From Pristiophorus japonicus (lineage: Eukaryota): a DNA stretch of 64,000 nucleotides. Positions 5,735 through 59,160 of this stretch are shown here, piece by piece; within the stretch, counting starts at the first letter, position 1, and every line of letters begins with the position of its first letter. Made by a program: the position numbers and the translations under genes. Location of the stretch: assembly GCF_044704955.1 (NCBI RefSeq), contig NC_091978.1:373178001-373242000 (forward strand). The letters run 5' to 3'. The notes below the pieces were generated by a model, which searched no databases, was not told the DNA's origin, and saw nothing but the letters and a program-made list of their open reading frames with translations.

Positions 5735-6697
5735 GAAAGACTGACATTTCTATAGCTTCTTTCACAATCTCCGGATGTCCCAAAATGCTTTACAGCCAAT
5801 GAAGTACTTTTGGAGTGTAGTCACTGTTGTAATGTGGGAAACGCGGCAGCCAATTTATGCACAGCAAGCTCCCAGACACAGCAATGTGATAATGACCAGA
5901 TAATCTGTTTTTTTGTTATCTTGATTGAGGGATAAATATTGGCCCCAGTACACCGGGGAGAACGCCCCTGCTCTTCTTCGAAATAGTGCCATGGGATCTT
6001 TTACGTGCACCTGAGAGAGCAGACAGGGCCTCGGTTTAACGTCTCAACTGAAAGACGGCATCTCCGACAGTGCGGCACTCCCTCAGTACTGCCCCTCCGA
6101 AAGTGCGGCGCGCCCTCAGTACTGCCCCTCCGACAGTGCGGCGCTCCCTCAGTACTGCCCCTCCGACAGTGCGGCGCTCCCTCGGTACTGCACCTCCGAC
6201 AGTGCGGCGCTCCCTCGGTACTGCCCCTCCGACAGTGCAGCGCTCCCTCGGTACTGCCCCTCCGACAGTGCGGCGCTCCCTCGGTACTGCACCTCCTACA
6301 GTGCGGCGCTCCCTCGGTACTGCCCCTCCGACAGTGCGGCGCTCCCTCGGTACTGCCCCTCCGACAGTGCGGCGCTCCCTCGGTACTGCACCTCCTACAG
6401 TGCGGCGCTCCCTCAGTACTGTCCCTCCGACAGTGCGGCGCTCCCTCGGTACTGCCCCTCCGACAGTGCGGTGCTCCCTCGGTACTGCACCTCCGACAAT
6501 GCGGCGCTCCCTCGGTACTGCACCTCCGACAATGCGGCGCTCCCTCGGTACTGCCCCTCCGACAGTGCGGCGCTCCCTCGGTACTGCACTGGAGTGTCAG
6601 CCTGGATTTTTTTGTGCTCAAGTGTCTGGAGTGGGACGTGAACCTACAACCTTCTGACTCACATATGAGAGAGCTGCCCACTGAGCCCCGGCTGACG
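5735..6697 (-). mobile_element. Full-length tRNA-headed Deu-domain SINE (SacSINE1-like) with a 33-bp VNTR (6062-6590, about 16 units)
   Basis: tRNA-like head (ggctcagtgggcag...ggttcacgtccca), Deu core (gtctttcagttgagacgttaaaccgaggccc), L2-like 3' tail. Confidence 0.82.
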
Positions 6698-6769
6698 GGT
6701 GTAAGAATAGAATTGCTGGAAATGAGCTGCCAATCCGTCAATATCTGAAACTGGTGATGTGTCATCGAG

Positions 6770-7170
6770 CACCAATGGTAGCATCCACGCCTCAGAAGCT
6801 GAGAATTGTCGGTGCAAGACCCACTCTAAGGACTAGAGCAATTAACATTCAGTGCAGTGCAGTGCTGAGAGAGTGCTGCATTATCAGAGGTGCCGTCTTT
6901 CGGACGAAATGTTAAACCGAGGTCCCTTCCGCCCATTCGGCTGGACGTAAAAGATGGCATGGGTAGGATTTGGAGAGGAGCAGGAGGGTGTCTACATGTG
7001 GCTTGGCCGCTGTTCATCCCTCCACGGACAATGCCACATTAACTGATCATCAATCCCATTGCTGTCTGTGGGAGCTTGCTGTGCACAATAACAGGGACCA
7101 CACTTCAAAAGCAATTCAATGGCTGTGAAGCACATTATAGTCCAAGGTGCTATTTAATGCAAGTTGTTTA
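6770..7170 (+). mobile_element. Older diverged Deu-SINE copy with a single, unexpanded unit
   Basis: gtgcagtgctgagagagtgctgcattatcagaggtgccgtctttcggacgaaatgttaaaccgagg; tail ggtgctatttaatgcaagt. Confidence 0.75.
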
Positions 7171-7454
7171 ATGTTTTGAGGTGAGCTTACGTCAGAATGA
7201 TGTCACCACCGGAAGGACCAACTCTCTGGCAATGGTGGGGGTCTTGTGCTCCTTCAGTATCTTTTGGTTCTTGTCTCCGATTTCCAGCATTCACCCTTTT
7301 TCATCCCCTCACAAATGAATCATATATTTGTTTAACAAGGCTGGACCATCGATCAGAGGGGATTATTCAAATGAACGGTTTCATCTCAGTAAACAAAATT
7401 AATTGTGTATATACTGTACCACTGAGCTCTTCAGTAGAGAGCAGAACTGAGCGA

Positions 7455-8262
7455 GCACAGCTATGGGGAAAGACTGGACAGGCTGGGGCACTTTGCTCGA
7501 GAAAAACGACAGCGGAGGGGCAACCTGACAGAGGTCTTTAAGACTATGAAAGGGTAGACATAGAGATAATGTTTCCCCCTGTGGGAGAGACCAGAACTCG
7601 GGGCCATCAATAACAGACAGTCACTAATAAACCCAATGGGGAATTCAGGAGAAACTTCTTTACCCTGAAAGTGGTGAGAATGTGGAACTCGCTGCCACAG
7701 GGAGGGGTTGAGGTGGATAGTATCGATGTATTTAAGGGGAAGCTGGATAAACACACGAGGGGGAAAGGAATAGAAGGATATGGTGATGGGGTGAGATGGA
7801 GAGGGGTGGGAGGGGGCTGGTGTGGAGCATAAACCCCGGCACGGAGCGGTGGGGCATAAACCCCGGCACGGAGCGGTGGGACATAAACCCCGGCACGGAG
7901 CGGTGGGACATAAACCCCGGCACGGAGCGGTGGGACATAAACCCCGGCACGGAGCGGTGGGACATAAACCCCGGCACGGAGCGGTGGGGCATAAACCCCG
8001 GCACGGAGCGGTGGGACCATAAACCCCGGCACGGAGCGGTGGGGCATAAACCCCGGCACGGAGCGGTGGGGCATAAACCCCGGCACGGAGCGGTGGGGCA
8101 TAAACCCCGGCACGGAGCGGTGGAGCATAAACCCCGGCACGGAGCGGTGGAGCATAAACCCCGGCACGGAGCGGTGGAGCATAAACCCCGTCACAGAGCG
8201 GTGGGGCATAAACCCCGGCACGGAGCGGTGGGGCCCAGTGGCCTGTGTCTGTGCCGTACATT
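7455..8262 (+). mobile_element. CR1 3' end with a 27-bp tail array (GCATAAACCCCGGCACGGAGCGGTGGG)n, 7822-8235, about 15 units
   Basis: CR1 C-terminal/3'UTR similarity; a single-unit version lies at 23815-23895 on the minus strand. Confidence 0.82.
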
Positions 8263-8863
8263 TGAAGTAAGACCAGCTCTTCTAAACACAGACAGAGGTT
8301 TGCACAGTTGCGCTGCCTAGTGAAAGGGCTACAGGATATCGTCAGCAACCTTTCACACAGTCAGTCTTTGGCTGAATTCACATGCCACAAACGTAGCGAC
8401 AATGCAAAGGCGAAGTGGCAGTGTGCTGATGCTAAGGTGAAATGTGTGAATCGGGTGTCAGGACTCCAACTAACGGCGAAGTGAGTCTCGCCAATCGGCG
8501 CTGCGGTTTGTGGTGGAGCAGGCTCGAGGGGCCGAATGGCCGACTCCTGCTCCTATTTCTTATCTTCGTATGTTCTGCGTAATTTATGGACATCGGCTGG
8601 GGTCCGTTCTTGATGCTGCGCTCCATCACCATTGCACCGGGAGTGCGAGCGCTTCTGGCCAACATTCCTCCCCCAACCACCAGCACAACTAATTCAGCAC
8701 CTCCTTCACCCCCTCTGTCTCTGCCACCCGGTCATGGCGAGGTAACAGTAAACATTCATTTATTGAAACTCTTTGAAACATCCTGAAGACACGAAAAACT
8801 GCGACTACTTTATCCCTTTCTCTTGCGCTCTCGCTTTCTTTTTCTCTCTTCCTCTCTTTCGCT

Positions 8864-9272
8864 CTCCAGTCCCCCCCTCTCTAGTCCCCCCCCCCCCTCT
8901 CCAGTCCCCCCCCCCCCTCTCCAGTCCCCCCCCCTCTCCAGTCCCCCCCCCTCTCCAGTCCTCCCCCCCTCCAGTCCCCCCCCCCTCCAGTCCCCCCCCC
9001 CCTCCAGTCCCCCCCCCCCTCCAGTCCCCCCCCCCCCTCTCCAGTCCCCCCCCCCCCTCCAGTCCCCCCCCCCCCCTCCAGTCCCCCCCCCCTCCAGTCC
9101 CCCCCCCCTCCAGTCCCCCCCCCCTCTCCAGTCCCCCCCTCTCCAGTCCCCCCCCCTCTCCAGTCCCCCCCCCTCTCCAGTCCCCCCCCCTCTCCAGTCC
9201 CCCCCCCCTCTCCAGTCCCCCTCCCTCTCCAGTCCCCCCCCCTCTCCAGTCCCCCCCCCCTCTCCAGCTCCC
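8864..9272. repeat. C-rich minisatellite (CTCCAGT-Cn-T)n with variable C-run length
   Basis: Direct inspection; G-quadruplex-prone on the minus strand. Confidence 0.92.
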
Positions 9273-12228
9273 CCTGCTCTTTCTCTCTCGCAAATGTTAC
9301 TGAATTTGTTCAATGGGTTTGTGAAAATCTTCAGCTTGTATGTACTGTAGCAGACATAGCAGGGATTTGTCCAAATTATAGCTGCTTTACAGAGGTTGCA
9401 CTAAATATTTCCACTGTGGAAAAATAGATTGCGATTTAGAAAGTGGTGACTCAGTCCTCAAAGCCTCCGAACACATTACACACAGCAGTTTCTCAATTTC
9501 TACATTGTACAAGGAAAAGCTTGCTATCGAAAGTCTTGCTGGCTGTGTCTGTCACATTCTCATGTGGCACCTTCTCTCTGTCTGGCTTTGTCCTGTCATT
9601 CATTATCAGCCTGATTTCCCCCACTGTACATAAGGTATTTGTAAAATCACTGTTGCTCCTTTCCTGGCAATGAACTCAGTGGTTTTAGATTTCTCTCTCT
9701 CTCAGGCATCAGAATCGAGGAAGACTTGCTTCCACTCTAAAAGTGAGTTCTCAGGTGGCTGAACAGTCCAATACGAGAACCACAGTCCCTGTCACAGGTG
9801 GGACAGACAGTGGTTGAGGGAAGGGGAGGGTGGGACTGGTTTGCCGCACGCTCCTTCCGCTGCCTGCGCTTGGTTTCTGCATGCTCTCGGCGACGAGACT
9901 CGAGGTGCTCAGTGCCCTCCCGGATGCACTTCCTCCACTTAGGGCGATCTTTGGCCAGGGACCCCCAGGAGTCGGTGGGGATGTTGCACTTTATCAGGGA
10001 GGCTTTGAGGGTGTCCTTGTAACGTTTCCTCTGCCCACCTGGGGTTCGCTTGCCGTGTAGGAGTTCTGAGTAGAGCACTTGCTTTGGGAGTCTCGTGTCT
10101 GGCATGCGGACAAGTGGCCTGTCCAGCGGAGCTGATCGAGTGTGGTCAGTGCTTCAATGCTGGGGATGTTGGCCTGATCGAGAAAACATTGGTGCATCTG
10201 TCCTCCCAAGGGATTTGCAGGATCTTGCGGAGGCAGCTCTGGTGATATTTCTCCCGTGTTTTGAGGTGTCTACTATACATGGTCCATGTCTCTGAGCCAT
10301 ACAGAAGGGCGGGTATCACTACTGCCCTGTAGCCCATGAGCTTGGTGCCAGATTTGAGGTCCTGGTCTTCGAACACTCTTTTCCTCAGGCGGCCGAAGGC
10401 TGCACTGGAGGCGGTGTTGAACCTTGTCGTCGATGTCTGCCTTTGCTGATAGTAGGCTCCCGAGGTATGGGAAATGGTCACGTTGTCCAGGGCCGAGCCG
10501 TGGATTTTGATGACCAGAGGGCAGTGCTGTGTGGCGGGGTCAGGTTGGTGGAGGACCTTTATCTTACGGATGTTTAGTGTAAGGCCCATGCTTTTGTACA
10601 CTTCGGTGAAGGTGTTGACGATGGCTTGGAGTTCGGCCTCCGAGTGTGTGCAGACGCAGGCGTCGACTGCGTGCTGTAGCTAGACGACAGATGATGGGAT
10701 GGTCTTGGATCTGGCCTGGAGACGGCGGATGTTGAACAGATTTCCGTTTGTTCTGTAATTTAGTTCCACTCCAGTGGGGAGCTTGCTGAGGGCGAGATGG
10801 AGCATTGGTGCGATCACACAGCCCTGTTTGACCCCGGTCCGGGCATGGAATGGGTCTGTGGTGGATCACTGCTTGCATGTCATTGTGGAGCAGGCAGAGG
10901 ATGATGACAGACTTTTGAAGGCAGCCGAATCTGAGGAGGACGCTCCACAAGGGTTGGTGCTGCTCCCTGCATTTCTCTTGTATCTGTCGTACGGTGAAGA
11001 TCATGTCCATTGTGCCCCTAAGTGGACAGAATCCGCACTGCGACTCTGGGAGGAGCTCCTCAGCCACAGGGAGAAGACGGTTGAGGAGGACTCTAGCGAC
11101 GACTTTCCCAGTGGTCGACAGCAGGGAGATTCCTCTGTAGTTGCCGCAGTCGGACTTGTCACCTTTTTTCAAGAGAGTTACAGTGTCTCTGAGATCTCTT
11201 GGCATGCTCTCCTCCTTCCAAATAAGAGAGATGAGTTCATGAATCCGCGCCAGTAGTACTTCATCGCCATGCTTTAGTGCCCCAGCAGGGATTCCATCTG
11301 TTCCTGAGGCCTTGTTGTTCTTGAGATGACGGATGGCCTTTTCTACCTCGTGCCGAGCTGGGCTTTGCTGAGATAGTGGCTGGTGGCAGGCTGCGGGATG
11401 GAGTCGAGGACACTCGCATCAAAGGCAGAGTCTAGGTTAAGGAGATCTTCGAAGTGCTCCTTCCAGTGGGCACTGACTGCCTCTCTGTCCTTGATGAGTA
11501 TCTCTCCATTCTTGGCCAGTAGTGGGGTAGGGGCTTGGGTGCTTGGGCCGTAGGTCGTCTTGACTGTGCTGAAGAATCCTCGGACGTCGTGGTTGTCAGC
11601 TAGCTGCTGGATCTCCCGCGCTTTCTCCATCCACCATCTGTTCTTTAGGCCGCGAGTTTTCTGTTGGACCTCAGCCATCAGACGTCTGTAGAGCTGCTTT
11701 CTTGCCCTCGAGTTGTGTTGCTGCTTCCAATCCAGGAATGCCTTGCGCTTGCGGCATATTAGCTCCTGGATCTCCTGGTCATTCTCGTCGAACCAGTCTT
11801 GGTGTTTCCTGGTCGAGTGACCGAGCGTCTCCTCACAGGTGCTGATTATGGAGGCCTTGAGGGCAGACCAGACTCTGGGTCACTGGGAGTCGTCAGGTTG
11901 GTTGTGAGGCGCTGGTTGAATCGGGCTTTCCTAGCGGGGTCTTTGAGTGCTCCGGCGTTGATTTTCCTGCGACATTGTTTCTGTTGCCGTCACTGTTTTG
12001 GGTGGTGGTGGTGACAGAGGGGATTAGGCCGTGGTCCGTCCAGCAGTCGGCAGCTCCTGTCATGGCGCAGGTGATGCAGATGTCCTTGTGGTCCCTCGCT
12101 CGGACAATGACGTAGTCAAGGAGATGCCAGTGCTTGGAGCGAGGGTGTGGCCCTGAGGTTTTATATTTGTCCTTCTAACGGAACAGGGTATTGGTTATGA
12201 CAAGGCTGTGTTCTAAGCATTTCGTCAT

Positions 12229-14450: not shown

Positions 14451-14504
14451 CTGGCACGGTGGTTTTAGAGATTGTATAGACTAAGATGTTGACGTTTTTG
14501 TTAA

Positions 14505-15614: not shown

Positions 15615-16340
15615 CTAAAACGCTCTCCTGGCCGGCCTCCCATCTTCCACCCTCCCTAAACTTCAGCTCATCCAAAACCCCGATGCCCCGTGTCCTAACT
15701 CGCACCAAGTCCCGCTCACCCATCACTCCCTGTGCCCTGCGTCCTAACTCGCACCGAGTCCCGCTCACCCAGTGTCCTAACTCACACCGAGTCCCGCTCA
15801 CCTATCACCCCCTGTGCCCCGTGTCCTAACTCGCACCGAGTCCCACTCACCCATCATCCCCTGTGGTCGCTGCCCCGTGTCCTAACTCACACCGAGTCCC
15901 ACTCACCCATCACCCCCTGTGTTCGCTGACACCCGGTCTGGCAAAGTCTCCATTTTAAAATTCTCATCCTTGTTTACAAATCCCTCCATGGCCCTCGCCC
16001 CTCCCTATCTCTGTAACCTCCTCCAGCCACACAACCTCCGAGATGTCTGCACTCCTCTAATTCTGCCCTCCTGAGCATCCCTGATTATAATCGCTCCTCC
16101 ATTAGTGGCCGTGCCTCAGCTGCCTGGTCCCTAAGCTCTGGAACTCCTTCCCTAAACCTCTCCGCCTCGCTCCTCCTTTAAGACACTCCTTAAAACCGAC
16201 CTCTGACCCAGCTTTTGGTCACCTGTCCTAATATCGCTATGTGGCTCGGTGTCACATTTGTTCTGATAATCGCTCCGGTGAAGCACCTCGGGATGTTTTA
16301 CTACATTAAAGATGCTATATAAATGCAAGTTATTATTGTT
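15615..16340 (+). mobile_element. L2-clade LINE 3' end with about 5 imperfect internal tandem copies of gtgtcctaactcgcaccgagtcccgctcacccatc (15685-15925)
   Basis: L2-type 3' region ending gctatataaatgcaagtt; same family at 45215, 46850, 49210 and 59330. Confidence 0.75.
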
Positions 16341-16613: not shown

Positions 16614-17970
16614 TTGGGCCCAAGTTTCCACAGGATAAAAAACGGGCCCAGTTTTTCGCGCCTAAAACGGCGGCAGAAAAAAAACGCGCTATTCTCGAGC
16701 GCTTTGCAGCTCCTTGTCTGTTTGGCCCAGGGGGGCGGAGCCTACACTCGCGACGATTTTGTAAGTGGGAGGGGGCGGGTACTATTTAAATTAGTTTTTT
16801 TTCCTGCCGGCAACGCTGCGCGTGCGCGTTGGAGCGTTCGCGCATGCTCAGTGTGAAAAAAAACATTGGCACTCGGCCATTTTTGTAGTTCTTTGTAGCT
16901 GTTTAATTTTTGAACATTTTTTAATAAAAGCACATTGCCATCAGCACATCAGCACTGAGGCTATCCTTCTCATAGAAACATAGAAAATAGGTGCAGGAGT
17001 AGGCCATTCGGCCCTTCTAGCCTGCACCGCCATTCAATGAGTTCATGGCTCCTTCCCCTCCCTCCCCTCCGCGGCAACAAACCGCTGTCTCCTCCCCCTC
17101 CCCACCCTCCACGGCAACAAGCCGCTGTCTCCTTCCCCTCCCTCCCCTCCGCGGCAACAAACCGCTGTCTCCTCCCCCTCCCCACCCTCCACGGCAACAA
17201 GCCGCTGACTCCTTCCCCTCCCTCCCCTCCGCGGCAACAAGCCGCTGTCTCCTTCCCCTCCCTCCCCTCCGCGGCAACAAACCGCTGTCTCCTTCCCCTC
17301 CCTCCCCTCCGCGGCAACAAACCGCTGTCTCCTTCCCCTCCCTCCCCTCCACGGCAACAAGCCGCTGTCTCCTTCCCCTCCCTCCCCTCCACGGCAACAA
17401 GCCGCTGTCTCCTTCCCCTCCCTCCCCTCCACGGCAACAAGCCGCTGTCTCCTTCCCCTCCCCACCCTCCGCGGCAACAAACGGCAGTTTTCTCCCACGG
17501 GAACGAACGATGGCTGAAGCACTTTCACACAGATAGGAAGATGGTTTATTTAATCTTTTCTTTGCTTATAAATGTTTATTCAGGTTGGATTTATTTGTAT
17601 AATATTTGTAGAAGTATAAATAAGGATTTATTATAGAATTTAATGACTTCCCTTCCCTCCCCCCCCCCACCCCTCGTTCTGGACGCCTGATTTGTAACCT
17701 GCGCCTGATTTTTTAATGTGTAAAACAGGTTTTTTCAGTTCTACAAAAATCTTCACTTGCTCCATTCTACTTTAGTTTGGAGTCCGTTTTCACTGTGGAA
17801 ACTTTGAAATCAGGCGTCAGTGGCCGGACACTGAAGAAAAAATTCTGTTCCAAAGTAGAACTGTTCTACCTGACTAGAACTGCAGAAAAAAAAATGTGGA
17901 GAATTGCGATTTCTAAGATAGTCCGTTCTCCACCAGTTGCTCCTAAAAATCAGGCGCAAATCATGTGGAC
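16614..17970. mobile_element. Putative non-autonomous DNA-transposon-like element starting ttgggcccaagtttcc. Contains a HER1 tail (16971-17050, minus) and a 40-bp array (17051-17485, about 11 units).
   Basis: Abrupt CpG-rich onset. The right end aaatcatgtgga partially mirrors the left tccacaggat. Classification is inference. Confidence 0.5.
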
Positions 17971-18292
17971 TGAGTTGGTGCTGTCTCCTGTCTTACTGGG
18001 TCTGCAGATGCAAGTTGAATGATGTTGCAGTATAATACTTCTGGAGCATTATATTTCACCTAGAGCAATAAATATTTCTAATTGAAGCCCCGTTTCCACA
18101 AGACTTTTGGATTTATGAGAAGGGTTTTGGTGATCTGAGCCCTGTGAGATCGTATTGTTTTTCCCCATTGGTTGGCAAGGGGATTTCCAGCATAAGTACT
18201 TCATTCAAATTCGGCTTTGTCTTGCTTATCATATGTATTTGTGTGAGTACTTATTGTGCACTTGCAATAATCACTGTGATTTCTCCCTCCAG

Positions 18293-18333
18293 CTGACGGG
18301 CCTTACCTTCAGATTGTAGAACAACCCAAACAG
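18293..18333 (+). CDS. NFKB1: NFKB1 exon (human exon 4 equivalent); (T)DGPYLQIVEQPKQ, start of the Rel homology domain
   Basis: ttctccctccag|CTGACGGG...AAACAG|gtaagg; 41 nt; matches p50 DGPYLQILEQPKQ. Confidence 0.96.
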
Positions 18334-18409
18334 GTAAGGGAGAGATCAAAGCGGCATTGCGTTTATTACTAGCATTATCTTGCACTTCATTAGTCATGTT
18401 CCTTCCTTT

Positions 18410-20596: not shown

Positions 20597-20759
20597 AATC
20601 CAAAACTAACCAATGTCTTTCCCAGATAATGTTTTACTATTACACACTGCTGTTGTTTCAGATACTTGTTTAATAAGATTGATCACCGAGCGTGTTGTGT
20701 ATACGGGACACCGAGCGTGTTGTGTATACGGGACACCAAGCGTGTTGTGTATCTACATA

Positions 20760-23190: not shown

Positions 23191-24017
23191 TTATACGGGG
23201 CACGGAGTGTGTTGTGTATACGGGGCACGGAGTGTGTTGTGTATACGGGACACCGTGCGTGCTGTGTATACGGGACAGTCTGTGCTCTGTCACAGGACAC
23301 TGTGCGTGCTGTGTATACGGGACAGTCTGTGTTTGCAGTGTTGCAGTGATACCCGGCTCATTCACTGTCGATTGGCGATATTACTTCCTGTGTGGATTTG
23401 GCTGGTCCGTTGACTGTGTCTGCACCCTGCGTTTATCAATCTCGGGCAAGTGCAAAGCAGTCGGGGATTCTGAAGAAGAGGCACAGATAAAAGAAACCGC
23501 TTGTTATTCATCAACTTTTTAAAAACAAATTCTTTTTTTTCTTTAAACTTATTCATGTGTTGTAAACCTGAGCCAGGCCCGTTTGAATAGTAACGACCGC
23601 AAGATAAAACCACAAGACCTTGATATTAACTTACCAATGTCGGTAAATGACAGAATTTTCTAGACATTGGGTTTATAGTTCTGGCAAATATCACAATAGG
23701 AAGGAAGTCAATGTGTGTAATAAATGTCAGCAGCAGATAGTGTACGTATACATCCCCGAATGATGCTTATCTCAGTCCATTTATGCTTCCTCTTCATTGT
23801 ATTACACAGTGTGTTACAGACCATTGGGCCCCAGCGCTCCGTGCCGGTATTAATGCTCCACACCAGCCCCCTCCCTCCCCTCTCCATCTCCCCCAGTGTC
23901 AGTGTCGCATTGCCAAGCGAGTGGGGTTACACATTGTTAAATCAGAAACGGAACTTGCGATTGAGATTAACCCTTGTAGTAAGAAACATCAGATTTATGT
24001 AACTCCTTCCCCAGCTA

Positions 24018-29286: not shown

Positions 29287-29439
<153 letters not shown>

Positions 29440-34249: not shown

Positions 34250-35690
34250 AGGAAAGAAAAGAAAGTCTTGCATTTATATAGCGCCTTTCACGGCCACCGG
34301 ACATCCCTAAGCACTTTACAGCCAATGAAGCACTTTTGGCATGTAGTCACTGTTGTAATGTAGGAAACATGGCAAACAATCTAAGCACAGCAAGCTCCCA
34401 CACACAGCAATGTGATAATGACCAGATAATCTGTTTTTGTTATATTGGCTGAGGGATAAAATACGGAGGAGCCAATTTAAAACCGAGTTGAGAAGGAATT
34501 TCTTCTCCCAGAGGGTTGTGAATCTGTGGAATTCTCTGCCCAAGGAAGCAGTTGAGGCTAGCTCATTGAATGTATTCAAGTCACAGATAGATTTTTAATT
34601 AATAAGGGAATTAAGGGTTATGGTGAGCGGGCGGGTAAGTGGAGCTGAGTCCACGGCCAGATCAACCATGATCTTGTTGAATGGCGGAGCAGGTTCGAGG
34701 GGCTAGATGACCTACTCCTGTTCCTAATTCTTATGTTCTTATGGCCCCAGGACACCGGGGGTAACTCCCCTGCTCTTCTTCGAAATAATGCCATGGGATC
34801 TTTTACATCCACCCGAGAGAGCAGAGGGGGTCTCGGTTTAACGTCTCATCCGAAAGATGGCGGCTCCGACAGTGCAGCACTCCCTCAGCACTGCCCCTCC
34901 GACAGTGCAGCACTCCCTCAGTACTGCCCCTCCGACAGTGCAACGTCCCTCAGCACTGCCCCTCCGACAGTGCAGCACTCCCTCAGCACTGCCCCTCCGA
35001 CAGTGCAACGTCCCTCAGCACTGCCCCTCCGACAGTGCAGCACTCCCTCAGTACTGCCCCTCCGACAGTGCGGTGCTCCCTCAGTACTGCCCCTCCGACA
35101 GTGCGGCGCTCCCTCAGTACTGCCCCTCCGACAGTGCAGCACTCCCTCAGTACTGCCCCTCCGACAGTGCGGTGCTCCCTCAGTACTGCCCCTCCGACAG
35201 TGCAGCACTCCCTCAGTACCGCCCCTCCGACAGTGCAGCACTCCCTCAGTACTGCCCCTCCGACAGTGCAGCACTCCCTCAGCACTGCCCCTCCGACAGT
35301 GCGGTGCTCCCTCAGTACTGCCCCTCCGACAGTGCGGCGCTCCCTCAGTACCGCCCCTCCGACAGTGCAGCACTCCCTCAGTACTGCCCCTCCGACAGTG
35401 CAGCACTCCCTCAGCACTGCCCCTCCGACAGTGCAACGTCCCTCAGCACTGCCCCTCCGACAGTGCGGCACTCCCTCAGTACCGCCCCTCCGACAGTGCA
35501 ACGTCCCTCAGTACTGCCCCTCCGACAGTGCAGCACTCCCTCAGCACTGCCCCTCCGACAGTGCAGCACTCCCTCAGCACTGCATTGGAGTGTCAGCCTG
35601 GATTTTGTGCTCTAGTTCCTGGAGTGGGGCTTGAACCCTGAACCTTCTGAATCAGAGGCGAGAGTGCTGCCCACTGAGCCTCGGTTGACA
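34250..35690 (-). mobile_element. Full-length Deu-SINE with VNTR (34863-35583, about 22 units), interrupted by a CR1 3' end (34460-34742, plus)
   Basis: Head, Deu core and tail all present; host gagggataaa|ggccccaggacacc is split by the insertion. Confidence 0.85.
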
Positions 35691-36284
35691 CAGATGAGCG
35701 AGGTACCGATACAGTGCAGCTTCTGGGGGAGCAGGCCATCTCGGACAGCGATTGCCGCGTTTAACTGCGGCCGCTGAAAGTTGCCATCTGATTTACTCCT
35801 CAATAACCGTGAGCACTGTTAGCTCACCATATTCTTACCGCAAAATCCTTATCTTTTTACCAGGAGAAACCTAAATGATTGTTTTTAGCAGGGGAAATTC
35901 ATCAGTCCTTTGTTGGGTCCCGAGTACAAAGAAATTCAAGCAACAGAGTGAGTTAATTGCTGGCTAGTGTTCCTGTGGAAATACCCCACAATGATAGTGT
36001 CATTACTGCTGATAAACAACGGCTTCGAGAAACTGCAGCAGCCCAGCTCTGCCAAGCTTGCTGAGCTCGAGAGGCGAGTGCTGCTTTGGTCCAAATCCCT
36101 TCACTCGGTTTCCCTCCGTCAGGGCAGTCTGAAGCTCCTGATATTTGAAGGTGCCTTTGTGCCCTGTATATACTCCATGCAAAGAGATCAAGGGATCGAA
36201 ATTCACCTCCGCCCAAAGCGGCGTGCACCTTCCGATCTTTGAAGTTTTTCTCGGCTGCATGGCTTGCCCTCGATATTCGTCACG

Positions 36285-36720
36285 GGGCGGGAGTTGCTGG
36301 GGGAGAGAGGGGAGAGGGGGCGGGAGTTGCTGGGGGAGAGGTTGCGGGGAGAGAGGTTGCGGGAAGAGAGGGGGCGGGAGTTGCGGGGGGAGAGGGGCCG
36401 GAAGTTGCGGGGGGAGAGGGGCCGGAAGTTGCGGGGGGCGAGGGAGCGGGAGTTGCGGGGGGAGAGGGGGGGCGTGAGTTGCGGGGGGAGAGGTTGTGGG
36501 GAGAGAGGTTGCGGGGGGAGAGGGGCCAGGAGTTGCGGGGGGCGAGGGAGCGGGAGTTGCGGGGGGAGAGGGGGGGCGTGAGTTGCGGGGGGAGAGGTTG
36601 TGGGGAGAGAGGTTGCGGGGGGAGAGGGGCCGGGAGTTGCGGGGGGCGAGGGAGCGGGAGTTGCGGGGGGAGAGGGGGCGGGAGTTGCGGGGGTGAGAGG
36701 GGGCGGGGGCCGAGGGGGGG
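36285..36720. repeat. G-rich minisatellite (GGGAGTTGCGGGGGGAGAGGGG-like) with a higher-order block repeat, inside a GC-rich MITE-like segment (about 36190-37075)
   Basis: Direct inspection. Confidence 0.85.
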
Positions 36721-37075
36721 GCCCCTGTTGCGGGGGCCGGGGGGCGGGAGAGCCCTGGCAGCGGGTCGGGTGCCCGACCAGTTTTCGGCGCCATGCTGGG
36801 GTGTCACTGCGTCTCACCCCTTCAGGTAAAGGGGAAGGCCGCTGAGAGCTCTGCAGCCACTTCACTGTCAAACACTGGGCCACCCGGGAGGCTTTCGGCT
36901 GGGCCAGCGGCCTGGTACCCGGGGGGGGGGGGGGGTGTTGCCGGCAGCACCCCCGACCAACATGGAACGCGCCGACACACAAAGCTGCCGGGGCCAAACC
37001 GGGAAAGGGTCGGCGCGAGCACGCCGCACCGGGAAAACCAGCGGAGCAATCCCCGACACCGCTCCACCCCTGAGG

Positions 37076-38925
37076 AAGGGCAGTACTGAGGGAGTGCCGC
37101 ACTGTCGGAGGGGCAGTACTGAGGGAGCGCCGCACTGTCGGAGGGGCAGTACTGAGGGAGTGCCGCACTGTCGGAGGGGCAGTACTGAGGGAGCGCCGCA
37201 TTGTCGGAGGGACAGTACTGAGGGAGCGCCGCATTGTCGGAGGGGCAGTACTGAGGGAGCGCCGCACTGTCGGAGGGGCAGTACTGAGGGAGCACCCCAC
37301 TGTCGGAGGGACAGTACTGAGGGAGCGCCGCATTGTCGGAGGGGCAGTACTGAGGGAGCGCCGCACTGTCGGAGGGGCAGTACTGAGAGAGTGCTGCACT
37401 GTCGGAGGGGCAGTACTGAGGGAGTGCCGCACTGTCGGAGGGGCAGTACTGAGGGAGCGCTGCACTGTCGGAGGGGCAGTACTGAGGGAGTGCCGCATTG
37501 TCGGAGGTGCAGTACTGAGGGAGTGCCGCACTGTCGGAGGTGCAGTACTGAGGGAGCGCCGCATTGTCGGAGGTGCAGTACTGAGGGAGTGCCGCACTGT
37601 CGGAGAGGCAGTACTGAGGGAGCGCCGCACTGTCGGAGGGGCAGTACTGAGGGAGCGCCGCACTGTCGGAGGGGCAGAACTGAGGGAGCACTGCACTGTC
37701 GGAGGGACAATACTGAGGGAATGTCGCGCTGTCAGAGGTGCTGCCTTTCCTAAGATGTTAAACCGAGGCCCCGTCTGCTCTCTCAGGTGGATGTAAAACA
37801 TCCCACAGCCACTATTTCGAAGAAGAGCAGGGGAGTTCTCCCCAGTGTCCTGGGGCCAATATTTATCCCTCCATCAACATCACAAAAAAAACAGATTATC
37901 TGGTCATTATCACATTGTGTGGGAGCTTGCTGTGTGTAAATTGCCTGCCGCGTTTCCCACATTACATAAGAACATAAGAAATAGGAGCAGGAGTCGGCCA
38001 TTCGGCCCCTCGAGCCTGCTCCACCATTCAATACGATCATGGCTGATCTGATCATGGACTCAGCTCCACTTCCCCGCCCGCTCACCATAACCCCTTATCG
38101 TTTAAGAAACTATTTCTGTCTTACGTTTATTCAATGACCCAGCCTCCACAGCTCTCTGAGGCAGCGAATTCCACAGATTTACAACCCTTAGAGAGAAGAA
38201 ATTCCTCCTCATCTCAGTTTTAAATGGGCGGCTCCTTATTCTAAGACCATGCCCCCTATTTCTAGTCTCCCCCATCAGTGGAAACATCCTCTCTGCATCC
38301 ACCTTGTCGAGCCCCCTCATAATCTTATACATTTCAATAAGATCATCTCTCATTCTTCTGAATTCTAATGAGTAGAGGCCCAACCTGCTCAACCTTTCCT
38401 CATAAGTCAAACCCCTCATCTCTGGAATCAGCCTAGTGAACCTTCTCTGAACTGCCTCCAAAGCAAGTATATCCTTTCGTAAATATGGAAACCAAAACTG
38501 TACGCAGTACTCCAGGTGTGGCCTCACCAATACCCTGTATAACTGTAGCAAGACTTCCCTGCTTTTATACTCCATCCCCTTTGCAATAAAGGCGAAGATA
38601 CCATTGGCCTTCCTGATCATTTGCTGTACCTGCATACTATCCTTTTGTGTTTCATGCACAAGTACCCCCAGGTCCCGCTGTACTGCGGCACTTTGCAATC
38701 TTTCTCCATTTAAATAATAACTTGCTCTTTGATTTTTTTCTGCCAAAGTGGATAACTTCACACTTTCCAACATTATACTCCTTCTGCCAAGTTTTTGCCC
38801 ACTCACTTAGTCACTTTACAACAGCAACGACACTCCAAAAAGTACTTCATTGGCTGTAGAGCGCTTTGTGACGTCCGATGGTCGTGAAAGGCGCTATAGA
38901 AATGCAGGTCTCTGTCTCTTCTTTC
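37076..38925 (+). mobile_element. Headless Deu-SINE with VNTR (37078-37740, about 20 units), interrupted by a minus-strand CR1 (37963-38812)
   Basis: The SINE tail resumes at about 38815 (acaacagcaacgacactccaaaaagtacttcattggc). Confidence 0.85.
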
Positions 38926-44329: not shown

Positions 44330-45065
44330 ATATTCCGCGCGCCGATGAGATGTTAAACCGAGATCCCATCCGGTGAACATAACTGGATGGATGGCTGTAT
44401 TGGGAGCTCTCCTCGAGTCCTTTAATCAAGCAGCTTGCTCCTTTCTCCTGGGGCCATGCTATGTACAAATTGTCTGCACTTCAAAACCTGATCCACTTTT
44501 TTGTGAAGTACTTTTAGAGTTCCTCAAGTTGCGATTTAAAAAAAAATTCATTCACAGGATGTGGGCGTCGCTGGCAAGGCCGGCATTTATTGCCCGTCCC
44601 TAATCGCCCTTTCACTGACAGTCACATATAGGCCAGATCGGGTAAAGATTCCCTTCCCTAAAGGGCTTAAAGCAAGAAAGACTTGCATTAATATAGCGCC
44701 TTTCACGACTACTGGATGTCTCACAGCGCTTCACAGCCATTGAAGTACTTTTTGGAGTGTAGGAAACACGGCAGCCAATTTGCGAGTGTGCTCCCACTGA
44801 GCTGACACGGACACGAGAGCAATGTTACTGGACCAATGATCCAGAGACCTGGACTAATTCCACCACATCAGTGACCCAGGTGGGTTTTTACAACAATCTG
44901 GTGGTTTCATGGTCACCATTACTCTGGCTTTTTATTCCAGATTTATTTAATGAACTGAATTTAAATTCCCAGCTGCCGTGGTGGGATTTGAACCCGTGTC
45001 TCCGGATCATTGGGCCAGGCCCCTGGATTACTGGTCCAGTCACATAACCACTGTGCTACTGTACT
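44330..45065. mobile_element. Cluster of SINE fragments, including a minus-strand tRNA-headed SINE (44865-45065)
   Basis: B-box ggttcaaatccca on the minus strand; Deu-SINE and LINE tail fragments. Confidence 0.6.
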
Positions 45066-49209: not shown

Positions 49210-49492
49210 TTCTCCAATTCTGCCCTCCTGACCATCCCCGATTTCAATCGCTCCACCATCAGCGGCAGTGCCTTCAGCTCGGCCCCAAGCTCTGGATCTC
49301 CCTCCCTGAACCTCACCACCTCTCTGTCCTTTAAGACGCCCCTTAAAACCGACCTCTTTGACAAAGCACCTGGTCACCTGACCTAATATCTCCTTTATGT
49401 GGCTCGGTGTTAAACTTAGTGTGATAATCGCACCTGTGAAGCACCTTGGGACGTTTTACTGCGCGAAAGGCGCTATATAAAGGCAGGTTGTT
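49210..49492 (+). mobile_element. L2 3' end
   Basis: ccccaagctctgg...gaaaggcgctatataaa. Confidence 0.78.
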
Positions 49493-49644
49493 AGTGAGCG
49501 GCCTTCTGGTCGTTGAAAGGTCTTCCTGTTTGTCTCTGAGTCTGTACGATGATGGTCAGAAAAGCGGGGTTTGCAAACCATGCGTGTTGCTGTTGTCGAG
49601 TATAGCGACTGCCTGACTGCCCGCTGGTCAAAGACAAAAAGCCA

Positions 49645-52075
49645 GCGAGCAAGGTGTGAGCGAGGTGTGAGCGAGTTGTGAGCAAGGTGTGAGCGAGGTG
49701 TGAACGAGTTGTGAGCAAGGTGTGAACGAGGTGTGAGCAAGGTGTGAACGAGGTGTGAACGAGTTGTGAGCAAGGTGTGAACGAGGTGTGAACGAGTTGT
49801 GAGCAAGGTGTGAGCGAGGTGTGAACGAGGTGTGAGCGAGGTGTGAACGAGTTGTGAGCAAGGTGTGAGCGAGGTGTGAACGAGGTGTGAACGAGGTGTG
49901 AGCGAGTTGTGAGCGAGTTGTGAACGAGTTGTGAGCAAGGTGTGAGCGAGGTGTGAACGAGTTGTGAGCAAGGTGTGAACGAGGTGTGAACGAGGTGTGA
50001 GCGAGGTGTGAACGAGTTGTGAGCGAGGTGTGAGCGAGGTGTGAGCGAGGTGTGAACGAGTTGTGAGCGAGGTGTGAGCGAGGTGTGAACGAGGTGTGAG
50101 CGAGGTGTGAACGAGGTGTGAGCAAGGTGTGAGCGAGGTGTGAGCGAGGTGTGAACGAGTTGTGAGCAAGGTGTGAGCGAGGTGTGAACGAGTTGTGAGC
50201 GAGGTGTGAACGAGGTGTGAACGAGTTGTGAGCGAGGTGTGAACGAGTTGTGAGCAAGGTGTGAGCGAGGTGTGAACGAGTTGTGAGCGAGGTGTGAACG
50301 AGGTGTGAACGAGTTGTGAGCGAGGTGTGAACGAGGTGTGAACGAGGTGTGAGCGAGTTGTGAGCGAGGTGTGAGCGAGGTGTGAGCGAGGTGTGAGCGA
50401 GGTGTGAACGAGGTGTGAGCGAGGTGTGAACGAGGTGTGAGCGAGGTGTGAACGAGTTGTGAGCAAGGTGTGAGCGAGGTGTGAGCGAGGTGTGAACGAG
50501 TTGTGAGCAAGGTGTGAGCGAGGTGTGAGCGAGGTGTGAACGAGTTGTGAGCGAGGTGTGAACGAGGTGTGAACGAGTTGTGAGCAAGGTGTGAACGAGT
50601 TGTGAGCAAGGTGTGAGCGAGGTGTGAACGAGGTGTGAACGAGTTGTGAACGAGTTGTGAGCGAGGTGTGAACGAGGTGTGAACGAGTTGTGAACGAGTT
50701 GTGAGCGAGTTGTGAGCAAGGTGTGAACGAGTTGTGAGCGAGGTGTGAACGAGTTGTGAGCAAGGTGTGAGCGAGGTGTGAACGAGTTGTGAGCGAGGTG
50801 TGAACGAGTTGTGAGCAAGGTGTGAGCGAGGTGTGAACGAGGTGTGAACGAGGTGTGAACGAGTTGTGAGCAAGGTGTGAGCGAGGTGTGAACGAGTTGT
50901 GAACGAGTTGTGAGCGAGGTGTGAACGAGTTGTGAGCAAGGTGTGAGCGAGGTGTGAACGAGTTGTGAACGAGGTGTGAGCGAGTTGTGAGCGAGGTGTG
51001 AGCGAGTTGTGAGCGAGGTGTGAACGAGTTGTGAGCAAGGTGTGAGCGAGGTGTGAGCGAGGTGTGAACGAGTTGTGAGCAAGGTGTGAGCGAGGTGTGA
51101 GCGAGGTGTGAGCGAGGTGTGAACGAGTTGTGAGCGAGGTGTGAACGAGTTGTGAGCAAGGTGTGAGCGAGGTGTGAACGAGTTGTGAGCAAGGTGTGAG
51201 CGAGGTGTGAACGAGGTGTGAACGAGTTGTGAGCGAGGTGTGAACGAGGTGTGAGCGAGTTGTGAGCAAGGTGTGAACGAGGTGTGAACGAGTTGTGAGC
51301 GAGGTGTGAACGAGTTGTGAGCAAGGTGTGAGCGAGTTGTGAGCGAGGTGTGAACGAGTTGTGAGCAAGGTGTGAGCGAGGTGTGAACGAGTTGTGAGCA
51401 AGGTGTGAGCGAGGTGTGAACGAGTTGTGAGCAAGGTGTGAGCGAGTTGTGAGCAAGGTGTGAGCGAGGTGTGAACGAGGTGTGAACGAGGTGTGAACGA
51501 GTTGTGAGCAAGGTGTGAGCGAGTTGTGAGCGAGTTGTGAACGAGTTGTGAGCGAGGTGTGAACGAGTTGTGAGCAAGGTGTGAGCGAGGTGTGAACGAG
51601 TTGTGAGCGAGGTGTGAGCGAGGTGTGAACGAGTTGTGAGCGAGGTGTGAACGAGTTGTGAGCGAGTTGTGAACGAGGTGTGAACGAGTTGTGAGCGAGG
51701 TGTGAGCGAGGTGTGAACGAGTTGTGAACGAGTTGTGAGCAAGGTGTGAGCGAGGTGTGAACGAGGTGTGAGCGAGTTGTGAGCGAGTTGTGAGCAAGGT
51801 GTGAGCGAGGTGTGAACGAGTTGTGAGCGAGTTGTGAACGAGTTGTGAGCAAGTTGTGAGCGAGTTGTGAGCGAGTTGTGAACGAGTTGTGAGCAAGGTG
51901 TGAGCGAGGTGTGAGCGAGTTGTGAGCGAGTTGTGAGCAAGGTGTGAACGAGTTGTGAGCAAGGTGTGAACGAGGTGTGAGCGAGTTGTGAACGAGTTGT
52001 GAGCAAGGTGTGAGCGAGGTGTGAGCAAGGTGTGAACGAGTTGTGAGCGAGTTGTGAGCAAGGTGTGAGCGAGTG
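49645..52075. repeat. 2.4-kb 11-bp minisatellite, (K)TGTGA(R)C(R)AG, about 220 units with three binary variant sites
   Basis: Direct inspection. Confidence 0.97.
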
Positions 52076-52404
52076 TGAAATGGATGGTGGGCAGTTTCTC
52101 TCATCAGTTAACCAGCTGCTTGCTCATTGAGCCTACTTTGGTGATGGAGTAAAGATGCTGCAGTATTTTCTAATTGTGCATTTTGTGCACACTAAGAGGT
52201 ATAAGACGGGCAATGAGTCGCTCCACTTTGGGCACCAGTGAGAGCATTGAGCCCTTCCCGTGGGTCAGGTACAAAAACATGCTCGACCAATCTCACTGCA
52301 CTCGAGCTATTTTTCCCATCCCAGCTATATTTATGCCCTTGAGAAGTGAGACGACTGATGCAGTGAGACTTGTTGCCGGTTGCAGCTATCTTCCGATTCA
52401 TGAT

Positions 52405-53265
52405 ATAGGAAACGCGGCAGTCAATTTGCGCACAGCAAGCTCCCAAAAACAACAATGTGATAATGACCAGATAATTTGTTTTAGTGATGTTGCTTCAGAG
52501 ATAAATATTGGCCAGGACACCGAGAAAAATCCCTTGCTCTTCTCCGAAATAGTGCCTAGGAAAATGTCACATCCACCTGATGGGGCCTCGGTTTAACGTC
52601 TCTTGGAAAAACGGCACATCCGACAGTGCGGCACTCCCTCAGTACTGCCCCTCCGACAGTGCGGCGCTCCCTCAGTACTGCCCCTCCGACAGTGCGGCAC
52701 TCCCTCAGTACTGCCCCTCCAACAGTGCGGCACTCCCTCAGTACTGCCCCTCCCACAGTGCAGCAGAAGCTCCCTCAGTACTGCCCCTCCGACAGTACAG
52801 CACTCCCTCAGTACTGCCCCTCCGACAGTGCGGCGCTCCCTCAGTACTGCCCCTCCGACAGTGCAGCAGAAGCTCCCTCAGTACTGCCCCTCCGACAGTG
52901 CGCCGCTCCCTCAGTACTGCCCCTCCGACAGTGCGCCGCTCCCTCAGTACTGCCCTTCCGACAGTGCACCGCTCCCTCAGTACTGCCCCTCCGACAGTGC
53001 GGCACTCCCTCAGTACTGCCCCTCCGACAGTGCGGCGCTCCCTCAGTACTGCCCCTCCGACAGTGCGGCGCTCCCTCAGTACTGCCCCTCCGACAGTGCG
53101 GCGCTCCCTCAGTACTGCCCCTCCGACAGTGCGGCGCTCCCTCAGTACTGCCCCTCCGACAGTGCGGCGCTCCCTCAGTACTGCCCCTCCGACAGTGCGG
53201 CGCTCCCTCAGTACTGCACTGAGAGTGTGAGCCTGGATTATGTGCTCAAGTCTCTGGAGTGGAAG
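52405..53265 (-). mobile_element. Partial Deu-SINE with VNTR (52619-53220, about 18 units)
   Basis: Deu core plus array; includes 36-bp variant units containing gcagcagaagctcc. Confidence 0.85.
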
Positions 53266-53769
53266 ATTTTCAAGGCTCTGGAGTCAAAAGCAGGTCTCTG
53301 TTGTGAAAGGCGAATTTGACGCCCAAAGACCTTAACGGACAGATAATGGTGCAGGCTGCACATCAGATGTGCAGAATTCCCGAGACCCTGTTTCCACGTG
53401 CGATTCTCAGCAATAGTGCAAGTAGCATAATAATGGAGGAAGCATTATTTTCCTGTGAGTTAAAGTGGAATAGTGCTCAGAAAAGAAGAATGCAACAAGA
53501 GATGAAATTTCGTGATCCTCCTCCCTGCATCAATTCTTCATCGCGCGGCCTGGAAGGCGCCTCCTGTCTTCAGTTAATGGGGTTAAGGAAACTGGATCGT
53601 TGTTGACCTGCCCGGGCAGCAGGTTTGGGAGCTCGGGATCAGGGTTGTGAAGAGATGTCGGGAAATATTTTCCTTACACCGAGGGTGATCAGTTGCGGGA
53701 ACAGATTACTAGGGGAAACGTTTGAGGGGATTTATTTATGAAGCAAATGGGGAGTTGGGTTGGTTTGAA

Positions 53770-56575: not shown

Positions 56576-56658
56576 GTATTCCGAGAGGATGAGCTGAAAT
56601 GGACCTGATGATGTGATGGTGTTATTGCTCAGTAATAGAATTCTCTCTTTCTGTTTAG

Positions 56659-56810
56659 ATATGTAACTACGTCGGGCAAGCGAAGATTGTTGTTCAGTTG
56701 GTGACGTTTGGCAAAGAGACCGTCCATCTCCATGCCCACAGTCTCGTGGGCAAACAGTGTGAAAAAGGAATATGTTTAGTACAACTGGGACCAAAGGAAA
56801 TGATTTCAAC
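56659..56810 (+). CDS. NFKB1: NFKB1 exon (human exon 6 equivalent); [50 protein letters not shown]
   Basis: ttctctctttctgtttag|ATA...TCA AC|gtaagt; 152 nt, phase 0 to 2; LHAHSLVGK motif. Confidence 0.97.
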
Positions 56811-57779
56811 GTAAGTGAACGTGTCCCCATCAGAATGTTCAAAACAAATAATCCGACTTTAAAGATATTCTCTCTCACTGCGAGTGTCATCGCGTGTTTG
56901 AACTTTGAAGGTTTTTTAGTTACATTAACGAGATGGTCTTGCCAAGAAAATACCCCTCGATGCTTGCTTATACACAGCCTCCCTAACCCCCAGTAATCCT
57001 GACCCCAGGGGGAGCCAAACACCCCAGGTCTAACTTCAGGCTAAACTCTGAGACATTCTCCTTGCCTTTTCCGGATAATTGAGCGAGCTTTGAGCTTGGT
57101 AAGCCATGGCATGTCACCAGGACTGGAAAAAACCATTTCATCCCATTGGGCTGGCCTCAATGGTCGCACACTTCATATCTCACTTTCTCTCCTGTACATT
57201 CTAGAGTGCTACCTGTCTCGCGTATATCCATCAGCCATTCAAAATTTATAGCATCCTCCCGAGGTAGGCTATTCTACATATTCATCCCGCTCACAGAATC
57301 TCACAGCACAGGAGGAGGCCATTGAGCCCATCGTGCCCGTGACAGAACGATCCAATCAGTCCCCTTTCCCCGGAGCCCTGTGAATTTTTCCTTCAGGGAC
57401 TTATCCAACTCCCTTTTGAAAGCCACGATTGAGTCTGCCTCCACCACCCTCTCAGGCAGCGCATTCCAGATCCTAACCACTCGCTGCGTAAAAACGTTTT
57501 CCCTCATATCGACTTTGGTTCTTCTGTCAATCGCCTTAAATCTGTGTCCTCTGGTTCCCGACCCTTCCACCAATGGGAACAGTTTCTCTCGATACCGCTA
57601 TCAAATCTCCTCAACCTTCTCTGCTCTAACAGCCGTAGATTCTCTGAGGAACTTGAATTGAGGACTCTGAAAATGATGATGGTTATTGGGCAGAGGTCGG
57701 GCATCTGGCCCAACGAAACAGCAACTGGTTGCGTGAAGAGCCATTGCTCGGAAATTAATGGTGTTTATTCCTCCTCCAG

Positions 57780-57943
57780 ATTTCCAAACCTCGGTATCCT
57801 CCACGTGACCAAGAAGAACGTTGCCAACACACTTGAGCAGAGAATGAGTCAGGCTTATGTGCTGGGTTATAATAATGGAGTGGTGATACACCCAGAATTA
57901 AATCATCGACACAGCGAGAATTACACTCATAGGGAACTCACAG
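57780..57943 (+). CDS. NFKB1: NFKB1 exon (human exon 7 equivalent); FPNLGILHVTKKNVANTLEQRM...RELT, includes the long p50-type insert
   Basis: cctcctccag|A TTT...ACA G|gtcagt; 164 nt, phase 2 to 1; NLGILHVTKK motif. Confidence 0.97.
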
Positions 57944-58219
57944 GTCAGTTGCAATTAACGTGTGTGGTATCTCCCGTTAACTTGATCTTTGGATAAAGGT
58001 TCACTTGCAGTCGGAAGGAAGAGAGTCTAACGAGACCATTGGCTCCTAAGTGATGTACTATATTTTCCATTTTCAAATATAGCAGAAGAATTTAAAGATA
58101 ATTGGTCAAATAGCCAGAGGGGGAAGATGAGGAGAATGTTGCGTTTGACGCAGTGAGTGAGGAAAAAACCTGGCTCTTAATTTCCGAGGGAGATTTGTGA
58201 CCCGTACAATTAAAAAATA

Positions 58220-59160
58220 AATACTTGCATTTATATAGCACCTTTCACAACCCCAGGACATCTCATAGCGCTTTACAATCAATGAAGTACTTTGTGAAGC
58301 ATAGTCACTGTTGTAATGTGGGAAACATTGCTCTCACACAGCAATGAGATAATGATCAGATAATCTGGTTTTAGTGATCTTGGTTGAGGGATAAATATTG
58401 GCCCCAGAACACCAGGGATAATTCCCCTGCTCTTCTTCGAAATAGTGCCATGGGATCTTTTACATCCACTTGAGAGAGCAGATGGGGCCTCGGTTTAACG
58501 TCTCATCCGAAAGATGGCACCTCCGACAGTGCGGCACTCCCTCAGTACTGCCCCTCCGACAGTGCGGCACTTCCTCAGTACTGCCCCTCCGACAGTGCGG
58601 CGCTCCTTCAGTACTGCCCCTCCGACAGTGCGGCTCTCCCTCAGCACTGCCCCTCCGACAGTGCGGCTCTCCCTCAGCACTGCCCCTCCGACAGTGCGGC
58701 ACTCCCTCAGTACTGCCCCTCCGACGGTGCGGCGCTCCCTCAGTGCTGCCCCTCCGACAGTGCGGCACTCCCTCAGTACTGCCCCTCCGACGGTGCGGCG
58801 CTCCCTCAGTACTGCCCCTCCGACAGTGCGGCTCTCCCTCAGTACTGCCCCTCCGACAGTGCGGCACTCCCTCAGTACTGCCCCTCCGACAGTGCGGCAC
58901 TCCCTCAGTACTGCCCCTCCGACAGTGCGGCGCTCTCTCAGTACTGCCCCTCCGACAGTGCGGTGCTCCCTCAGTACTGCCCCTCCGACAGTGCGGCTCT
59001 CCCTCAGTACTGCCCCTCCGACAGTGCGGCTCTCCCTCAGCACTGCACTGGGAGTGTCAGCCTAGATTTTTCTGCTCGAAGCTCTGGAGTGGGACTTGAA
59101 CCCACAATCTTCTGACTCCGAGGCGAGGGTGCTGCCCACTGAGCCACGACTGACCCTGAC
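58220..59160 (-). mobile_element. Full-length Deu-SINE with VNTR (58519-59046, about 16 units) in intron 7
   Basis: Head, core and tail present. Confidence 0.85.

Follow-up and report, generated by a model that had tools for sequence, protein, structure and literature searches.

The 64,000 nucleotides of Pristiophorus japonicus DNA analysed here (NCBI RefSeq assembly GCF_044704955.1, contig NC_091978.1, positions 373,178,001 to 373,242,000 of the forward strand) contain six copies of one short interspersed element (SINE), each of which carries a long tandem array of the same 33-bp segment. This locus raises the question of how six separate insertions came to share such an array. Coordinates below are those of this whole stretch, which we call the window. 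A sequence-only reading had described the element as an SVA-like composite retroposon with an internal variable number tandem repeat (VNTR), and had proposed that either a repeat-bearing master gene was mobilised or that a single segment expanded repeatedly on its own. Comparison of the copies suggests that the arrays have a common origin, most likely in a source gene that already had at least two units, and that they did not rise separately from single-unit copies.

Six copies of one Deu-SINE and their arrays

Tandem Repeats Finder identified six period-33 arrays in the window, at 6062-6587, 30480-31393, 34864-35583, 37074-37738, 52619-53217 and 58520-59046 (matches 91-95%, scores 914-1646). 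After splitting into units the arrays, labelled A to F in this order, contained 16, 27 (plus a decayed partial unit), 22, 20, 18 and 16 units, in agreement with the sequence-only reading, which had the segment amplified about 16-27 times at these six places. Variation in unit number (16-27) was seen between loci only. When each array was collapsed to one unit, the six copies aligned with each other and with an older copy as a single SINE of about 450 bp, and the array occupied the identical position in all six. The older copy (6770-7175, + strand) was also correctly recognised by the earlier reading as having a single unit, at about 6856-6888, and was 28-35% diverged from the six array copies.

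Only copies A and F run uninterrupted from head to tail. Copy A (5738-6698, - strand) is a full-length SINE with its head at 6698-6588, the 16-unit array at 6587-6062, and the Deu body and tail extending down to 5738, with A and B boxes recognised by pattern. It is bounded exactly at both ends by a 9-bp target-site duplication, at 5729-5737 on the 3' side and 6699-6707 on the 5' side. Copy F (58219-59150, - strand) has a head with A and B boxes, 16 units at 58520-59046, the Deu core from 58520 downward and a tail, and its sense strand contains no run of four T. Nested fragments of long interspersed elements (LINEs) split two further copies. Copy C (34261-35690, - strand) has a head, 22 units at 34864-35583, a body interrupted by a LINE 3' fragment at about 34461-34741, and a tail, while copy D (37074-38913, + strand) is headless, with 20 units at 37080-37738, a body, a LINE fragment at about 37967-38811 and a tail. 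Copy D is directly preceded by a very GC-rich, CpG-island-like stretch with a G-rich array (36284-37079). Copy B (30480-31577, + strand) also has no head and begins in the decayed partial unit, followed by 27 units at 30500-31390, and its 3' end is lost. Copy E (52400-53277, - strand) retains a partial head and 18 units at 52619-53217, and has likewise lost its 3' end. SINE sequence therefore flanks the array on both sides in copies A, C, E and F and on one side in B and D. Two further pieces without the unit region were found by alignment, a 5'-truncated SINE tail at 44677-44825 (- strand), which is uninformative on the array, and a short tail fragment at 59235-59301 (+ strand).

The element opens with a head that bears the A and B boxes, continues with the unit and a Deu core, and closes with a LINE-like tail. 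Matching to consensus patterns gave an A box and a B box in copies A and F, their starts separated by 44 bases, and a B box in copy C; ARAGORN and Rfam scans detected no intact tRNA. Comparison by eye of copy F, from 58520 downward, with the AmnSINE1 Deu block drawn in Fig. S4 of PMC7245038 gave 31 matches over the block's first 33 bases, and the next block had a 17-base run in common with copy F, also by eye. With the boxes for RNA polymerase III (Pol III), this Deu core is our basis for assigning the six copies to the DeuSINE superfamily. The 33-bp unit adjoins the 5' side of the approximately 130-bp Deu core drawn in the same figure, with a 2-base overlap, and, judged from lengths, is probably part of the wider vertebrate Deu domain, 330 bp long, of PMC4824008. 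The earlier description of the unit as a Deu segment thus probably holds for the wider domain and does not hold for the core.

Two longer repeats, at 16230-16340 and 49390-49500, have 3' ends that aligned with the final 50 or so bases of the SINE tail. The SacSINE1 family has its 3' tail in common with an L2 LINE, and these two repeats may be of that type. A LINE-like 3' fragment at 15686-15921, whose end is also common to the SINE tail, has short tandem duplications within it. SacSINE1 of the dogfish, its variants SacSINE1-CM, -RT and -LE, and LmeSINE1 likewise join a tRNA-type head, with its A and B boxes, to a Deu core and a LINE-like tail, and with one unit the window SINE measures about 450 bp as compared to 463 bp for SacSINE1 (PMC2746220). 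We therefore call it SacSINE1-like, a resemblance of length and layout and not of compared consensus sequences. SacSINE1-type copies of the whale shark are 97-463 bp long and the available text of PMC5499810 mentions no tandem array in them, whereas the window copies carry arrays.

The junction base and turnover of the units

The base at which one unit joins the next was G at 105 of the 113 internal junctions (10/15, 26/26, 21/21, 16/19, 17/17 and 15/15 in arrays A to F). The base preceding the first unit was T in all four copies that have a head, the last base of the terminal unit was T in five of the six arrays, and headless copy B opens with its decayed partial unit ending in a G junction. 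Because both ends of the array have T, duplication of a single unit would yield a T junction, and the G at internal junctions points to shared descent or to exchange between loci.

Sequence divergence also set the units apart from the element that contains them. Units from different arrays differed by 0.071 as compared to 0.160 for the remaining SINE, and at non-CpG sites the values were 0.047 for units and 0.135 for flanks. Outside the arrays the six copies were 12.6-20.4% diverged in pairwise comparison, and a tree built from the non-array columns was star-like with unsupported inner branches. The majority sequences of the arrays departed from the overall majority at 0-2 of 33 bases and no array had a difference in more than 80% of its own units. 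Late growth from single aged units would predict about 12 fixed non-CpG differences over 162 sites and at most one was seen (P(at most 1)=4e-5 at the flank rate). Rare variants common to several arrays were left unused, as recurrent mutation could account for them. The shared derived junction base and the absence of fixed differences between arrays contradict independent expansion from single-unit copies, one of the two routes that the earlier reading had offered.

The units have changed since the copies were inserted. Divergence within arrays was 0.055, one third of the flank value, and each array contained 8-13 unit types with private variants. Array A has a private C at unit position 8 in 12 of 15 full-length units counted and T at 5 of its 15 junctions, array C contains four 32-bp units, array F has A at position 16 in 5 of 14 units counted, and array E has two 37-bp units. 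The private variants called from the sequence alone at 6, 35 and 58 kb were thus real, and the long units called at 52 kb proved to be two of 37 bp, not 36 bp. In array B, units 3-11 are repeated as units 16-24 with one mismatch (permutation p = 0.0005). The private variants, the 5.5% divergence within arrays and this nine-unit block duplication together demonstrate turnover after insertion, bearing out the suggestion that arrays diversify once in place, and the arrays likely grew in place after insertion as well.

Arrays in other read sets and the history of the repeat

Read-derived contigs of two organisms, from two studies, were compared with 6522-7460, an interval that takes in the older copy as well as two units and copy A's head. 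Organism A is likely the source species, its contigs matching the unique parts exactly, and hence does not provide independent support. At the two ends of the two-unit stretch the G junction led the loose-end consensus from unit to unit, with 559 and 507 contigs in organism A and 805 and 695 in organism B. A minor junction variant was present in 141 contigs of organism B, and the loose-end consensus of the two organisms differed at unit position 16. Summed depth in organism A, which is not a copy number, reached 29 million over the two unit bins, whereas the head had 0.95 million, the best tail bin 1.9 million and unique DNA 17-21; in organism B it was 83 million on the unit bins as compared to 0.6 million on the head and 2.5 million on the tail, with the same reservation. 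The unit is in large excess over the remaining SINE in both organisms. One contig of organism B aligned with 6698-6859 at 82% identity and stopped at the insertion point of copy A without entering the SINE, the far side of the site lying beyond the compared stretch. This is possibly the empty orthologous site of copy A. If so, copy A would have inserted after the lineages of organisms A and B split, with G-junction arrays already present in both.

Unit junctions were also seen in raw reads of a third run. Run X22 yielded 27 matching reads out of 10.1 million, too few for copy counts and possibly carry-over, and run X23 yielded none. More than half of the words of copy F were contained in 14 of 24 runs (DNA-type or untyped, from five organisms); organisms C, D and E contained 0.56-0.62 of them, values that serve as leads only, and six runs guessed to be RNA contained 0.19-0.36. 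Protein searches with translated arrays returned one and three unnamed matches (P0002-P0005). These are predicted public proteins that resemble translations of the repeat, two of them having serine in place of the window's alanine, as in the variant junction of organism B. A representative protein search gave 30 matches and the 12 examined were unrelated repeats. Scans with the unit DNA pattern found no locus in viral and prokaryote collections, and none, then one, in metagenomes. The latter, a 24-base exact match in a bacterial-looking contig (L001:473-496), showed no SINE flanks by eye and was taken as chance.

From the junction base we infer a source gene with at least two units. We consider it probable that the unit was duplicated in this gene, spread as a multi-unit seed by retroposition, and then grew and turned over in place. 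A 7-bp near-repeat, GTGCAGT on one side and GTGCCGT on the other at a distance of 33 bp, encloses the single unit, and the first slippage may have occurred on this near-repeat in the source gene. The T-to-G change at the junction would have arisen once, in the source gene with its duplicated unit. Copies with at least two units would then have retroposed, likely driven by a LINE, and copy A has the structure of such an insertion, with Pol III boxes and a LINE-like tail between the two halves of a target-site duplication. After insertion units turned over, and unbroken units may have been preferentially re-amplified, aided by the GC-rich, repeat-prone setting and perhaps by the G-run at the junction, which would hold arrays nearer to the source unit than their flanks. 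The earlier master gene proposal is supported only for a source that already had at least two units, today's lengths and variants being of later date. Neutral or selfish growth of the repeat is the default explanation, and host function is not implied.

Several observations weigh against this account. Single-unit copies with a young-type head before the unit were found in 353 contigs of organism A and 216 of organism B, and joints linking head to unit and Deu were listed for at least 7 and 2 contigs respectively, so the SINE family does not carry the array as a fixed trait. No contig of either organism spans an array, so array lengths are unverified. Significant block duplication was detected in array B and in none of the other five. 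A convincing target-site duplication was not found for copies C, D and F and was clear in one of the four copies tested. Divergence of the terminal units was only 5.2% (0, 1, 2, 6, 0 and 0 differences over 29 sites). As this is less than the flank rate, the fixed-difference test loses force and its expectation falls from 12 to about 8. The best 25-bp G4Hunter score rose from 0.70 for T junctions to 1.18 for G junctions, a borderline value that is no more than suggestive of expansion promoted by the G-run. Finally, ectopic conversion accounts equally well for the shared junction. Expansion driven by hairpins was also considered and rejected, four folds giving no signal (z = -0.36, -0.46, +1.11 and -0.42).

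By ectopic conversion we mean non-allelic gene conversion through the 33-bp unit, which would copy arrays into existing single-unit SINEs and homogenise loci without retroposition. Halved unit divergence and the coexistence of single-unit copies fit this process as the shared junction does, and both the position-16 difference between organisms and the 141-contig variant junction of organism B are as expected under genome-wide concerted evolution, which is how the available text of PMC10702118 explains squamate SINE-derived satellites (sSats) that are 89% similar between loci as compared to 64% for the SINE. However, private variants reach frequencies of up to 80% within arrays, so that exchange between loci cannot be rapid, and conversion tracts would often take in flanks, which instead show 13-20% divergence and a star-like tree. 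Lineage-specific source genes also explain the differences between organisms. On this balance we regard ectopic spread as rather unlikely. An SVA-like master of about 15-25 units, retroposed whole with present lengths largely inherited, appears less likely again. The narrow range of 16-27 units would suit it, as would possible Pol III read-through of copy F in the absence of a four-T run, the start of two copies within the array as 5' truncation would give, and a summed unit depth in organism A about 15-30 times that of head or tail (again not a copy number). But divergence of 5.5% within arrays as compared to 16% between copies indicates that arrays were largely rebuilt after insertion, no common order of variants between arrays was apparent by eye, unrelated arrays in the window are of similar length, and copy B also lacks its 3' end, so that loss of the head may be a later deletion.

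Independent rise of each array from a single-unit copy through intrinsic instability is very improbable. The 7-bp near-repeat around the unit recalls Alu-derived minisatellites (PMC3389668, available text), the region is rich in unrelated arrays, single-unit copies exist, and recent duplication may account for the T junctions found in two arrays. Against this, the identical T-to-G change would have to occur six times, and again in a second organism, and about 8-12 fixed differences are predicted where at most one was seen. The older single-unit copy in the same intron is unexpanded, and a control LINE 3' segment carried an array in 1 of 18 copies as compared to all six young SINE copies that retain the unit segment (Fisher p = 5e-5), so the setting alone is insufficient. 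We give least credence of all to arrays built or inflated by the assembler. The unverified lengths would allow it, and lengths recur, at 413-432 bp in five of the 11 unrelated arrays and at 526-527 bp in two of the six from the SINE. However, unit-to-unit junctions occur in hundreds of read-derived contigs from two organisms and two studies and in the raw reads of the third run, each array has its own 8-13 unit types, and the window contains no N.

Growth from a multi-unit seed could also be combined with conversion. The junction base may make a 33-bp segment of a Pol III SINE prone to expansion, with tens of thousands of identical seeds over several shark lineages and arrays that ectopically convert single-unit copies, amounting to a self-spreading minisatellite carried on a retroposon. 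We put this forward tentatively, as an unlikely extension. If true, few tandem repeats in these genomes would be more abundant, and the repeat would add to intron size on GC-rich chromosomes, and it would provide a massively replicated natural experiment on the control of minisatellite growth by chromosomal position.

Host gene, neighbouring repeats and known systems

All six arrays are intronic, lying between exons of an NF-kB p105 (NFKB1)-like gene on the + strand that spans more than 54 kb of the window. The exon at 56659-56810 matched p105 in PDB (E = 1.6e-18), and motif scans placed further p105-like exons on the same strand at 5466-5556, about 18290-18330, about 29290-29390, about 57785-57880 and about 59850-59970. 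The window is GC-rich and 19% of it consists of tandem arrays, including 11 unrelated arrays of at least 250 bp. GC content and simple tandem repeats are reported to be higher on shorter shark chromosomes (10.1101/2022.10.17.512540, available text).

The 413-432 bp lengths of five unrelated arrays (644-1071, 7822-8234, 8862-9274, 17049-17480 and 36284-36712) occur despite units of 15-40 bp, and this clustering may reflect an effect of assembly or a preferred length. Among them the array at 644-1071 has 100% perfect repeats. The one LINE 3' segment that bears an array, at 4934-5209, contains a 25-bp minisatellite, and the 17 other copies of the segment have no array. Two short arrays at 20684-20752 and 23192-23331 have a related 25-bp unit, constituting a second dispersed minisatellite family. 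A 2.4-kb array on an 11-bp motif (49648-52079) displays variant patterns, strong G skew and a CpG observed/expected ratio of 1.8.

A search of the literature found no account of this array in cartilaginous fish, although Repbase, Dfam, subscription papers and supplements may hold one. The available text of PMC5499810 mentions no minisatellite or VNTR either, and term searches of the available text of PMC10468316, PMC11406177, PMC4824008 and PMC9659126 did not find the array. SINE-derived tandem arrays are nevertheless already known as a kind. The available text of PMC10702118 (Vassetzky et al. 2023) describes arrays of SINE segments in 56 squamate genomes, with high similarity between loci, locus-specific variants and a subtelomeric bias, and cites SINEs with internal duplications of about 30 nt; a mouse B1-derived VNTR family is listed in PMC9659126 (available text). 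The sequence-only reading knew of no precedent for the architecture, and the squamate satellites supply one, as they include a minor form with both SINE termini (PMC10702118).

As in sSat1-3, which in snakes are common to a clade, an internal SINE segment stands in tandem at many dispersed loci with locus-specific variants and with units more alike than the SINE copies (PMC10702118). Squamate arrays are recognised by four or more units in tandem, derived from a portion of a SINE whose sequence persists on one side or on both, and by units more alike, within and between loci, than the SINE copies. The window has 16-27 units at each of six loci, and the divergence of its units is 0.055 within and 0.071 between arrays as compared to 0.160. 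The differences are of size, ends and inferred history. The sSat units are about 70-290 nt long as compared to 33 bp here, and belong to another SINE superfamily and taxon. Most sSat loci keep one SINE end and a minority both, whereas four of the six window copies have SINE on both sides and one a target-site duplication. The junction base in the window points to a multi-unit source; the authors on sSats argue for duplication after insertion and concerted evolution (all PMC10702118, available text).

Minisatellites derived from Alu and other transposable elements likewise involve a segment flanked by short direct repeats and later growth in place (PMC3389668). Alu-derived arrays, however, average 2.3-2.4 units and arise from many positions, as compared to one segment with 16-27 units in all six young window copies. 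In LTR12 the repeat was already in the source element, and it was likely carried by transposition. The same available text describes the hominoid SVA as a composite of SINE-R, VNTR and Alu (PMC3389668). Like the window SINE, SVA is a retroposon that likely carries a GC-rich tandem repeat of a length that varies between copies. SVA is mobilised by a Pol II and L1 route. The window SINE, unlike SVA, has no foreign modules, its repeat is its own sequence, and it has Pol III boxes and a LINE-like tail that is not of L1 type. With the array taken as one unit, the copies align end to end with the older SINE. The proposed SVA-like composite is therefore not supported; head, body and tail all belong to a single SINE, with a target-site duplication around it.

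These comparisons extend SINE-derived satellites beyond squamates, to which their describers were unsure whether they were confined (PMC10702118, available text). The birth and growth of minisatellites are usually studied one locus at a time, and here one seed is found at many dispersed loci. With flank divergence as a clock, single-unit copies as controls and a marker base, existing shark assemblies allow source-gene inheritance, growth in place and ectopic conversion to be told apart. The unit also matters for annotation, since it has open frames and resembling translations occur among predicted proteins (P0002-P0005). Together these data establish a SINE-derived minisatellite that is real, abundant, present in at least two organisms and accompanied by unusually clear evidence of a shared seed, and that belongs by its tested features with the squamate SINE-derived satellites and not with composites of the SVA type.

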